Position numbers: made by a program
Virus genome (UHGV): UHGV-0228197
Direction: 5' to 3' (one strand)
Length of the DNA: 36,878 bases
DNA from: a virus
Shown here: one piece after another, positions 15,001-18,000 of the stretch
Position numbering within the stretch: the stretch's first letter is position 1
How the letters are laid out: each line of letters opens with the position of its first letter

Positions 15001-18000
15001 GCCGCGACTGATTCGCAATATCCAGTAAACCGTATCCCATATTGCCCCCTTACGCTGACACCAGTTTTCCGCCAACACTCAGTTGTTGTCTTGCAGGTGC
15101 AGAAGCCCCCGTCAGTATGTTCATCTGGCGATCCTGCTCTGCTTCACGGATACCATTTTTCGCGCCAGCAATTGCCAGAGCATTACGCAAACCCAGTGTG
15201 TTACTGTTGGGATTATCCGGGCGGCTTACCCCGTATCTCGCCATCTGGTTATCCTGCGCCATCTGCGCTGCACGGAGACTGGAAGTGGCAAGGCCGCCCA
15301 CCCGGGCAAGCTGTGCATTCATCAGGCTGTTGTTCTCGCCAAGGTCAGCCAGCCTTGCCACGCGGGGCAAATATCTGGTTCGCCAATCGTCGTATTGTTG
15401 GCGTGTCAGCGCTGCTGACGTCTGCCAGTCACCCTGTGGACGGGCAGCTCCGGTATAACCGTATCTCGCAAGTGTTTCGTATTTACCGTACTCCATAATC
15501 ACAGTCTCCAGTTCTGAGCCTGATGCTGAATGGCATTAGCGCCGGTGCCAGGTGTTTTAGCACCGCCACTTCCTCCGCTACCGCCAGCCTTATACATCGC
15601 ATATGCACCTACCGCACCCAAACCAGCGCCAACAAGAGAGGCTCGCCCCTGCTGTTTCGTAAACGCAGCCTGTGCGTCCGATTTAGCTTTTGCCAGACTG
15701 CTGTCTGCCAGCGAGTTAAAACTCTGTAACGCATCCGCCTTTTGACCAGAACCGAGAGCAGCAACATCCTGTAGCCCGGCAACATACTTATCTGCCTGCG
15801 ATACCTGCCCCCGTGTGGTTGTGTCAATCTGCCCGGTTACCTGATCACTCTGGTTCGCATTCATTACCGCGTTAAAGCGACCACTGGACGGGTCAACACC
15901 GGACTGAGCAAGATTATCCGCCAGCTCCTTCCGTGCTTCGCCAAACTGTTTCTGATACCCCAGATTTGTGGTGCCAGCAATATTGTCGTACTGCTGCTCA
16001 CTGTTCAGGTCATCGACCTTTTCCATGAAGTTATCTTCAGCCGGGCGGAGGATTTTTTGATAATCCTGCCACCCTTTCCAGGCCACTTCTTCCTGTGCTA
16101 TTTGCGCTGCTGTTGGTTTTACTTTGGTATCACCACCGCCTTTTTTTCCGCCCATTATGGCCCCCTGGATAACAAAAAACCCTGCCGGGGCAGGGTCAGA
16201 ATGTGAATTGCAATTGGTTTACACACGATAATGAATACAGTGGCAGTCAGACCGCTATCCTGAACACCATGAAGCCATCCTCATCATCCGGCATTCGCTC
16301 AAAGCCCAGACGTTTTCCCAGCCGGATAAATCCCCGTCTTGCCGTATGAAATTCAGCCCAGCGTCCGCCAGCCAGACGGGTTAATGTCTTCACCTCCGGC
16401 AGATAATGCTCAACGCTGTTACTCCCCGTACACACGCCCAGCAACACCAAAACATAAGGGATACCATCAGCACTGAGCACAGAACGCAGCACCAGAAAGC
16501 CATCAGGTGCCTCAAAACAAAACGCCTGCTTTTTAAGGCAGGCGTCTTTAACTTCATTCATAAATTCAGGGTTGCGGGAATTTCTCACAACACGCTGCAT
16601 ATACCGGAGAATTTTGTCGTCCATTCTCTCACCAGAAACGGGTGCCATATCGGCTGAACCTCAGCAACCAGTTGACGGGGACTTTCGTCCCCGTCGCGGT
16701 TTTCCTACTGCTTACACTGTAAGAACGCCGCAAACTCCGCTCCCCACAAATTCAGCCGGAACTCACACAACGAGCCGTGTAACATCCAGATGGTGAAGAT
16801 TACCGTCATACAAATTGTGACGGTGATGAGCGATTTTTGCGACATAGCGCTTGCCTCCTGAGTGGAGAGGCGCTAACCTTCTACTTGCTTAAGGTATGAT
16901 GGTTAGGGCCTCGGGTTAAACAAAATGTTTGACTCGGGGCCTTTCCACATCAGGCCTTCAGGTTCACCTTCCAGCCATCAGCCGAAAAGCACCCGCGCAT
17001 AATCTACGATTTTTGCCCTGCACGGGCAACAAAAAACCCGCCATCACAGCGGGTTATGACATGTTGTCGGGTATTACTCAGAATTTCAGGCCAATGCCTG
17101 CAAATAAACCATCAGTTTTCCAGTCGCCAGAGCCTGAGCTTTCATAAGTGACGTCCATAGTAACACTTTCATTGAAGTTAAATTGCGCGCCGACAGACCA
17201 TGCAATAGACGTTTTTTTGGTGCTGTTACTTTCAGAAAAACTACCGGCACCATGATTAAGATTGTCGTTAATTTTCAAGTCAGTGGTGACTTTTGCAACC
17301 CCCATACCAGCCATTGCATACACACTGAGGTATTCGTTAAACCGCCACGAAGGACCGGATAGTAGACTCCAGTAATTAGCCCTGATATCAGTTCTCGCTG
17401 AAGCTGCCGGGTTTTTTACCTCTCGTGATGGAGCGGAAGGCTTAACATCAATAAATGCCTGCGCATTAGTCATGGAGCGCGCCCATGTAAAAGAGGCTAT
17501 AACACCCAGTTCATCAGTTATCTCGTAACGATACCTGATGCTCATCCCCAGGGGGCTTTTGGCTGTGCCGTCATGCCCCCGGGCAATAGCATTTTCGTAT
17601 TCACCTGATGAATTAAAATGGTTTACGTTTACAACATTCCTGAACGTATCCCGGTTATAAACACCCACGTCTCTAACAAAATCCTTCAGCCCGGGGAAGC
17701 GTATGTGTGCAAACCCGAGAGATACCGTACTATCGCCTGATGCTGCATTTACCTGTGCAGTTAAGCAACTCATCACCAGAACTGCACACGCAAAAAATTT
17801 CATGATACTTTTCATTTTAAGTATTTCTCTGAATTAAAGGATGCGATGTCTGAAAGGAACGCTTTCGTTTTACACTATTAAAGTTTTTCTTACGCTAATC
17901 ATATATTGAGGAACTAATAACCAGAACTTTATCTATATACGGCTTTCGGATATCCCATGTTGCACCACCGGAATAATGCTCACAGGAATATATTTTATTT

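Follow-up and report, generated by a model that had tools for sequence, protein, structure and literature searches.

A lom-adjacent hok/Sok-type module of 933W-like Stx phages that lacks a mok frame

The hok gene and its genomic setting

The stretch of DNA analysed here, the virus genome UHGV-0228197 (36,878 nucleotides, referred to at its full length as the window), carries on its minus strand a small toxin gene of the Hok/Gef family, accompanied by what appear to be the RNA elements of a type I toxin-antitoxin (TA) system in which the translated leader frame mok is missing. The hok coding sequence (CDS) occupies 16845..16705, and its 46 codons followed by TAG encode the peptide MSQKSLITVTICMTVIFTIWMLHGSLCEFRLNLWGAEFAAFLQCKQ, exactly the translation given by an earlier sequence-only reading of this DNA. 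The Shine-Dalgarno (SD) sequence AGGAGG (16859..16854) and an 8-nt spacer, CAAGCGCT, precede the ATG at 16845, in agreement with the consensus SD and the spacing that had been noted. The assignment to the Hok/Gef family was borne out by profile searches, in which the peptide matched Pfam PF01848 (HOK_GEF) at 33.2 bits against a curated cutoff of 22 (E 4e-8, profile positions 6-42 of 42) and PHROG 251 ('MokW-like host killing') with an E-value of 2.8e-24. The best NCBIfam match, the HokA equivalog NF007290, scored 38.4 bits and stayed below its cutoff of 89. Residues 6-22 (LITVTICMTVIFTIWML) are hydrophobic with a mean Kyte-Doolittle value of 2.3, and the SLCE core lies at residues 25-28, both as first described, with C27 invariant across 30 relatives. 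Judged by these sequence features, the open reading frame (ORF) is a real gene for a Hok/Gef-family membrane toxin.

The toxin subfamily shows a median ratio of non-synonymous to synonymous substitution rates (dN/dS) of 0.23, and the window and the 933W copy of hok differ by seven synonymous changes and no non-synonymous ones, a pattern that marks the peptide as evolving under purifying selection.

Contrary to its first description as unannotated, the gene had been recorded before. The identical protein is WP_000078907.1, annotated in RefSeq as 'Hok/Gef family protein' in O157:H7 and other strains and covered by PHROG 251, and the GenBank record of phage Lyz12581Vzw also annotates the hok gene of the lom gap as a Hok/Gef family protein. 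Old records, e.g., 933W (AF125520.1), carry no hok annotation, and the gene lies there in the 430-bp gap between lom and L0129. The exact peptide appears in the text and tables of the preprint by Escalera-Maurer et al. (bioRxiv 10.1101/2025.08.07.668861) as homolog 72_1589 of the 'high-abundance' cluster 72, to which the P2-type relative 72_1621 also belongs. The same text describes the cloning of 72_1589 as plasmid LRP157 under the arabinose promoter for an induction toxicity assay, in which 42 of the 45 homologs were toxic and the exceptions were 19_179, 60_1482 and 69_1540; the catalogue, as presented there, covered CDS only and left Mok, Sok and the mRNA elements aside as hard to identify. 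In O157:H7 Sakai, 14 Hok/Gef genes were counted by Fozo et al. 2010. As far as checked, within the literature searched, the Hok toxin gene is already known and only the missing mok has not yet been described.

The hok gene lies within the virion arm of a 933W-like phage that carries Shiga toxin (Stx), between lom and tail-associated genes and in the orientation of the late operon, which agrees with its earlier placement inside the virion gene cluster. A terminator scan recovered both flanking terminators named in the sequence-only reading, the lom terminator (stem 17055..17035 followed by a T-run) and a second one at 16197..16178. The suggestion that hok behaves as an insulated moron did not stand, in that the unit between both terminators comprises hok and the downstream L0129-like gene, and hok is not individually insulated. 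Phage records with lom and L0129 that lack hok were sought as a test of moron insertion, and no such record was found. The same DNA occurs at 90-98% identity in 196 phage records, nearly all from Stx-converting 933W-like phages (Sepvirinae), and about 1550 of 5426 complete E. coli genomes (~29%) match the hok module.

For the comparative analysis, 20 non-redundant homologous modules were gathered from different genomic contexts. They stand beside lom in Stx phages, beside ogr at the ends of P2-like prophages, in tandem pairs and at other sites in Salmonella, in E. albertii and Citrobacter, and in one copy near a relaxase gene. Homology across these contexts begins at a -10-like TAGATT followed by CGGGTGC and stops at GGCACCC. 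By these limits, the module would measure ~395 bp and extend over 17029..16634 in the window.

The predicted Sok gene and the hok mRNA switch

A hok promoter is predicted on the minus strand at 17029..17001, directly after the lom terminator, with a -35 box TTGCCC (17029..17024), a 17-nt spacer and a -10 box TAGATT (17006..17001). It agrees with the consensus at 8 of 12 positions and aligns with the hokC and hokB promoters; in 18 of the 20 modules a -10 box (TAGATT, TAAATT, TAGAAT or TAGAGT) stands 6-7 nt before CGGGTGC. The predicted hok mRNA stretch runs from 16994, where the match to the Rfam model RF01794 (sok / hok leader) starts, to 16634, and its 5' and 3' ends are joined in the minimum free energy (MFE) fold. 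RNAalifold, run on 14 diverse homologues, returned 73 pairs over this stretch, 15 of them with compensatory changes. The 5' end, GGGTGCTTTTCGG (16994..16982), is the predicted tac element, whose partner would be the fold-back inhibition element (fbi) as long as the mRNA is full-length and ucb once it is truncated. The predicted fbi (16653..16640) is made up of GGCACCC (16646..16640) and CCGA (16653..16650); in the unconstrained MFE fold 16994-16988 pair with 16640-16646, and 16985-16982 pair with 16650-16653. The tac-fbi helix contains seven near-invariant pairs, and four pairs adjoining it covary (CG8/UA6, GC8/CG6, AU8/GC6 and CG6/GC3/GU3/UA1).

The elements of the alternative fold lie between tac and the toxin gene. 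The ucb candidate, GGAAAGGCCCC (16946..16936), whose opposite strand forms the 3' arm and tail of the predicted Sok terminator, is paired with tac in 94% of cases, with two compensatory positions. The motif GAGGC (16912..16908), counterpart of the canonical mok SD, aligns with the GAGG that precedes the mokC and mokB start codons; here no start codon follows it, and it pairs with ucb or with dcb. The predicted dcb (GCCTC, 16871..16867) would be the partner of GAGGC in the active fold and part of the anti-SD hairpin in the closed fold, and the GAGGC-dcb pairing is complete (100%, GC:13 / AU:1). The hairpin predicted to sequester the hok SD, AGCGCCTCTCC-ACTC-AGGAGGCAAGCGCT (16874..16846), contains AGGAGG, and its outer helix is kept in the 14 homologues with one-sided wobble changes only. 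Just past the hok stop codon, at 16696..16673, lies a stable hairpin with a 10-bp stem and compensatory changes in five pairs. It matches in position the last stem-loop of the truncated R1 hok mRNA (PMC9841398) and, by analogy, is expected to close the 3' end of the hok mRNA in its processed, active form.

The alternative fold of the processed mRNA, comprising tac-ucb and GAGGC-dcb, was written down from R1, and its pairing was then counted against slid partners and shuffles. In this fold 92% of cells are paired, compared with 38-57% when the partners are slid; seven pairs show double changes, and none of 500 shuffles reaches the score. The same 5' bases covary with both the fbi-side and the ucb partners, and three-way covariation connects alignment columns 10-11, 50-51 and 366-367 as well as columns 56, 87 and 127. 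In the homologue L019 one change appears together in ucb, GAGGC and dcb. The covariation pattern is that which two functional and mutually exclusive mRNA conformations would produce. The long-range tac-fbi lock and the alternative tac/ucb and SD(mok)/dcb pairings of the paradigm were thus both found, and the alignment argues that the tac/fbi/ucb/dcb switch of hok mRNAs is present in canonical form.

On the opposite strand, the sequence-only reading had pointed to a -10-like TATGAT (16895..16900) and had been unable to define a Sok gene. The predicted Sok RNA can now be placed at about 16886-16947 of the plus strand by homology to sokB and sokC and by covariation. The hexamer TATGAT falls inside this RNA and is not conserved; it was rejected as a -10 box, with relatives reading TACGAA, TAGATA, TAGACG and AGTTGT and the resulting RNA having no 5' recognition tail. 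The predicted Sok promoter (16851..16879, plus strand) consists of -35 TTGCCT (16851..16856), a 17-nt spacer and -10 TAACCT (16874..16879). Its -35 box shares positions with the complement of the hok SD, and its counterpart in the alignment is the sokB promoter (TTGCCG / TAAGAT), with the annotated 5' ends of sokB and sokC lying downstream. The -10 box reads TAACCT in 18 of the 20 modules and TATCCT, the Sok -10 of R1, in the other two. The Sok RNA (16886..16947) would be ~62 nt long, with a single-stranded 5' tail, a terminator stem and a short U tail, its 5' end at ~16886 being placed by alignment to the annotated K-12 sokC and sokB. The terminator is a 10-bp stem (16905..16914 / 16934..16943) with two compensatory pairs. 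One further pair is U.G in 16 of 16 sequences, which on the hok strand would be an A.C mismatch, so this helix appears to have been selected on the antisense strand. A putative convergent Sok gene with its own promoter and terminator can be delineated from homology and covariation only. A literature search returned nothing on a Sok-like small RNA in the lom-L0129 gap.

The missing mok frame and the proposed control of hok translation

The sequence-only reading had found no mok frame, and this proved to be a real absence over 20 homologous modules with positive controls. Stop codons close the three frames of the window at 27, 35 and 43 nt before the start of hok. In the window, as in eight further E. 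coli copies, no frame that begins with ATG, GTG, TTG, CTG, ATT, ATC or ATA extends as far as the hok SD; a positionally conserved mok candidate is absent among the 20 modules, the candidates in the remaining 11 varying in position and frame. The same scan recovered mokC (-57), mokB (-58) and mokW (-57), each after GAGG. At the place of the mok ATG of hokB and hokC the window reads CCCTAACC, and by this alignment the GAGG 'mok SD' is retained as a structural element without a mok start. An atypical regulatory layout, raised earlier as a possibility, thus applies to the missing mok, while Sok and the folded leader are of the canonical kind. No description of hok loci without mok was found in a literature search that left T1TAdb and several subscription papers outside.

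If the locus worked as a canonical hok/mok/sok system all the same, a cryptic leader, read from a non-standard start or from a small upstream ORF (uORF), would be translated and open hok, and Sok would block the translation of that leader. The uORF in question encodes the 15-codon peptide MWKGPESNILFNPRP at 16950..16903 of the minus strand; its ATG is preceded by AAGG, it lies wholly in the Sok-complementary region, and mok translation is indispensable in R1 (PMC9841398). Moreover, two relatives possess longer leader ORFs, namely an 80-codon frame in E. albertii (L009) that starts with ATG at -103 and reads across hok, and a frame in C. braakii (L010) that ends in a TGA overlapping the hok ATG (TGATG). 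However, translation in R1 must proceed at least up to the hok SD (PMC9841398; review PMC4147584), whereas the uORF ends 58 nt short of the hok start codon; neither its length nor its peptide past residue 5 is conserved, and L010, L011 and the Salmonella copies lack its ATG. The frames closed 27-43 nt upstream of hok likewise offer no standard or rare start in between. The leader ORFs of L009 and L010 use different frames and are absent from the other members, and they may represent chance or lineage-specific mok-like leaders. On these comparisons the uORF is not an equivalent of mok, and we regard canonical control through a hidden leader as improbable.

Our preferred explanation is that the RNA switch acts on hok itself. 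The full-length hok mRNA would be inert, locked by tac-fbi as in plasmid R1. By analogy with the same system, slow 3' trimming to the hairpin at 16696..16673 would remove fbi and free tac for pairing with ucb, which would release GAGGC to pair with GCCUC (dcb). In doing so, GCCUC (16871..16867) would be taken from the anti-SD hairpin, and the hok SD would become exposed directly, with no need for a mok-translating ribosome. Such exposure could follow from the sharing of GCCUC by two mutually exclusive pairings, dcb doubling as the hok anti-SD; it is this final step, the direct action of the switch on the hok ribosome-binding site, that we infer. Sok would occupy 16886..16947 including GAGGC, returning GCCUC to the anti-SD hairpin, and the duplex would be a substrate of RNase III. 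Hok would be produced only upon loss of the unstable Sok, whether through prophage loss or prophage induction, and would then depolarise the inner membrane.

Constrained folding of the 14 homologues, with the covariation-supported helices enforced and the Sok target either free or blocked, agrees with direct SD switching and offers weak support for it. Adopting the active fold costs 10 of 14 homologues 0-2.1 kcal/mol, and in four, including the 933W type, it is the MFE fold itself. With the helices enforced, the predicted accessibility of the hok SD increases, in the window from 0.29 to 0.39 and in relatives up to 0.56, and it falls back to ~0.3 once the Sok target is blocked. Plain MFE folding gave no Sok-dependent change in hok SD accessibility.

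The module might instead be a silent relic, in which the hok SD stays locked for want of mok and the DNA hitch-hikes on successful prophages. The SD hairpin is present in all predicted states, many chromosomal hok loci are inactivated (K-12 hokA and hokC are flanked or cut by insertion sequence (IS) elements), and a homologue lacking the promoter and tac does exist. The latter, L017 of Salmonella (2311..2741), has its hok promoter and 5' tac replaced by unrelated sequence but retains fbi, an intact ORF and the Sok region, and represents either a variant truncated naturally at the 5' end or a copy in decay. Against a relic speaks the purifying selection described above, with all seven differences from the 933W copy synonymous, together with the maintenance of the regulatory helices by compensatory changes across E. 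coli, Salmonella, E. albertii and Citrobacter and a Sok -10 conserved in 20 of 20 modules; a dead toxin needs neither an antitoxin nor an RNA switch. Because of the low dN/dS, the synonymous differences and the compensatory changes across four genera, the evidence suggests that the toxin is still in use, and we consider a relic quite unlikely.

A further alternative concerns the late operon. Hok made from the transcript antiterminated by Q might serve as an accessory of the late genes that aids depolarisation or lysis of the cell or excludes other phages, with Sok silencing it in the lysogen. The gene points the same way as the late operon and is placed among virion genes, 185 of the 186 phage records with the neighbouring gene also contain hok, so that it is fixed in this phage group, and the PHROGs category of the family is 'moron, auxiliary metabolic gene and host takeover'. 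In Sp5, hokW-sokW speeds lysis and doubles phage release on induction (PMC8621323). The module is, however, also found outside late operons, at P2-like ends beside ogr, in the Salmonella tandems and near a relaxase gene. This alternative addresses the role of Hok and not the mechanism, and is compatible with direct control of hok by the switch; as an account of the locus it is possible but on the unlikely side. Speculatively, upon induction Q-antiterminated late transcription would cross the locus in the direction of hok and against the Sok promoter and could lower Sok, a decrease that may be likened to the disappearance of sokW after mitomycin C (PMC8621323).

Several points weigh against direct control of hok by the switch. 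R1 hok needs mok translation despite a good SD of its own (PMC9841398), hence direct initiation at hok cannot be taken as given. The SD hairpin at 16874..16846 persists in every MFE model, and the modelled rise in accessibility in the window, from 0.29 to 0.39, is small. A strict sigma-70 scan reported neither the hok nor the Sok promoter, both of which are weak compared with the consensus, so the promoter calls rest on homology. In most module contexts a rho-independent terminator follows fbi, but the Stx-phage copies have none there, the next one lying 450 nt downstream past the L0129-like gene, although the proposed processing needs a 3' end. The search of Rfam for Sok and hok leader elements, proposed earlier, returned a full-length match to RF01794 at 16994..16834 (E 6e-7), but its score of 39.2 bits is below the gathering score of 59. 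The toxicity of 72_1589 on induction is, by the text and tables of the preprint, a deduction from the three named non-toxic homologs being others. Finally, a literature search found no transcript, toeprint or expression data on the lom-adjacent hok.

With regard to the Rfam score, hokC, hokW and hokB reach 118, 113.5 and 110 bits, respectively, and this subfamily 36-55 bits; at a gathering score of 59, annotation based on Rfam would consequently miss the subfamily. The model lies on the hok strand in the controls too, and the strand of the match is therefore uninformative on that of Sok. Other weak Rfam matches (BSnc120, Trp_leader over the lom terminator and GlmZ) were treated as chance.

Weighing these lines of evidence together, we put at roughly 0.7 the probability that the locus is a complete hok/Sok-type type I TA module whose RNA switch controls the hok ribosome-binding site directly, without mok. 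For the wider proposal, that a large prophage-borne Hok subfamily works without mok, with the tac/fbi/ucb/dcb switch and Sok gating the hok ribosome-binding site directly, the odds appear to be about even. Antisense control by way of a translationally coupled leader, mok, has hok/sok as its textbook example. The subfamily is found in ~29% of complete E. coli genomes and in Salmonella, as well as in almost all 933W-like Stx phages and at the ends of P2-like prophages; if the proposal holds, it does without the mok leader described as 'absolutely required' for Hok translation. Such a subfamily would then reveal what the paradigm can do without, and a simpler, directly gated version would be at hand for study or engineering.

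Related copies and comparison with known hok systems

The profile search with the alignment of hok peptides yielded seven loci, three of them under implausible organism names. These three records (L005, L006 and L008, titled Xanthomonas pisi, Planococcaceae bacterium MAG and Vagococcus sp.) carry an enterobacterial hok module with 76-100% protein identity, and most likely represent contaminating E. coli or Salmonella DNA in the assemblies. The closest chromosomal match to the window, in E. coli NCCP15648 (L002, 3479..4856), is 99.8% identical; lom is cut there by IS1A and the hok module is intact. Two Salmonella records contain tandem complete modules of this hok subfamily (L015, 2501..2641 and 2991..3131; L016, 2501..2641 and 2995..3135), ~490 bp apart, each with its own leader and with Rfam sok scores of 55 and 49 bits.

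Downstream of hok, the L0129-like ORF (16247..16648, minus strand, 133 aa) is a homologue of 933W L0129, and RefSeq uses that start. The ATG at 16648 falls inside the hok fbi, where other hok modules have AAG. The profile of PHROG 610 spans only residues 9-133 of the 133, so the annotation is probably over-extended and the likely start is the ATG at 16624. Inside this ORF, at 16522..16545, lies a hairpin of 10 bp that has T-runs on the two strands and resembles a terminator in either direction; it could serve as a weak 3' end for hok or antisense transcripts. Elsewhere in the window, two copies of Rfam RF02221 (sRNA-Xcc1) were found on the plus strand at 287..375 and 824..909, scoring 69 and 73 bits, above the gathering cutoff. 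They sit near the end of the prophage arm, and one more copy lies near attR of 933W (L014, 17137..17225).

Among the named Hok proteins, HokA of E. coli K-12 is closest to the toxin of the window, with 46% identity and the C-terminal motif ...SLCE...AAFL(A/Q)CK... in common, whereas HokB, HokC and HokW are only 26-33% identical. The leader of K-12 hokA was unusable as a reference, with IS150 cutting the locus 32 nt upstream of hokA.

The second hok system of these phages deserves separate mention. Takada et al. 2021 (PMC8621323) showed by experiment that hokW-sokW of Sp5/933W, the one Stx-phage hok system characterised so far, is a type I TA system whose toxin appears upon prophage induction and speeds lysis and release, and their paper makes no mention of a second, lom-adjacent locus. 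Identity of the two was considered and rejected; the peptide and the place differ, and the window contains neither hokW nor the hokW primer sequence. HokW has 51 aa (MKQQKAM...) and is 33% identical to the Hok peptide described here. In 933W, hokW-sokW lies at 58.46-58.73 kb near attR and the lom-adjacent hok at ~45.7 kb (locus 45.4-45.9 kb), hokW thus being ~12 kb away, on the opposite strand and with a mokW frame present. The 933W sequence (L014, AF125520.1) accordingly shows two separate hok systems in phages of the 933W/Sp5 type, at 1429..1858 and 14461..14735. Whereas hokW was found in 46 phage records, the lom-adjacent hok occurs in 196 and is ~4x commoner; Sp5 and 933W carry both. Deletion of hokW-sokW delayed lysis by 40 min and lowered the phage yield two-fold (PMC8621323), phenotypes that were measured with the lom-adjacent hok still present and without discussion of redundancy in the paper. 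If the lom-adjacent module works as proposed, the partial phenotypes of hokW-sokW deletions may be buffered by it, and a redundant partner may have gone unnoticed in work on prophage stability, lysis timing and the release of phage or Stx in which hokW-sokW alone was deleted.

Compared with hok/mok/sok of R1, hokB and hokC, the module of the window shares the small membrane toxin, an mRNA of ~360 nt with tac/fbi fold-back, the ucb/dcb alternatives around GAGG, the stable hairpin past the stop codon and a convergent Sok of ~60 nt, with a promoter that overlaps the translation-initiation region of hok. The leaders of hokB and hokC align base for base with that of the window. Unlike these systems, the window has no mok frame, and the Stx-phage copies have no terminator after fbi. 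The toxin is also shorter (46 aa compared with 49-52 aa, at 26-30% identity), and the interval between the Sok target and hok is ~9 nt shorter than in the R1, hokB and hokC loci. Hence, the lom-adjacent locus is a variant of the hok/sok design and not a new kind of system.

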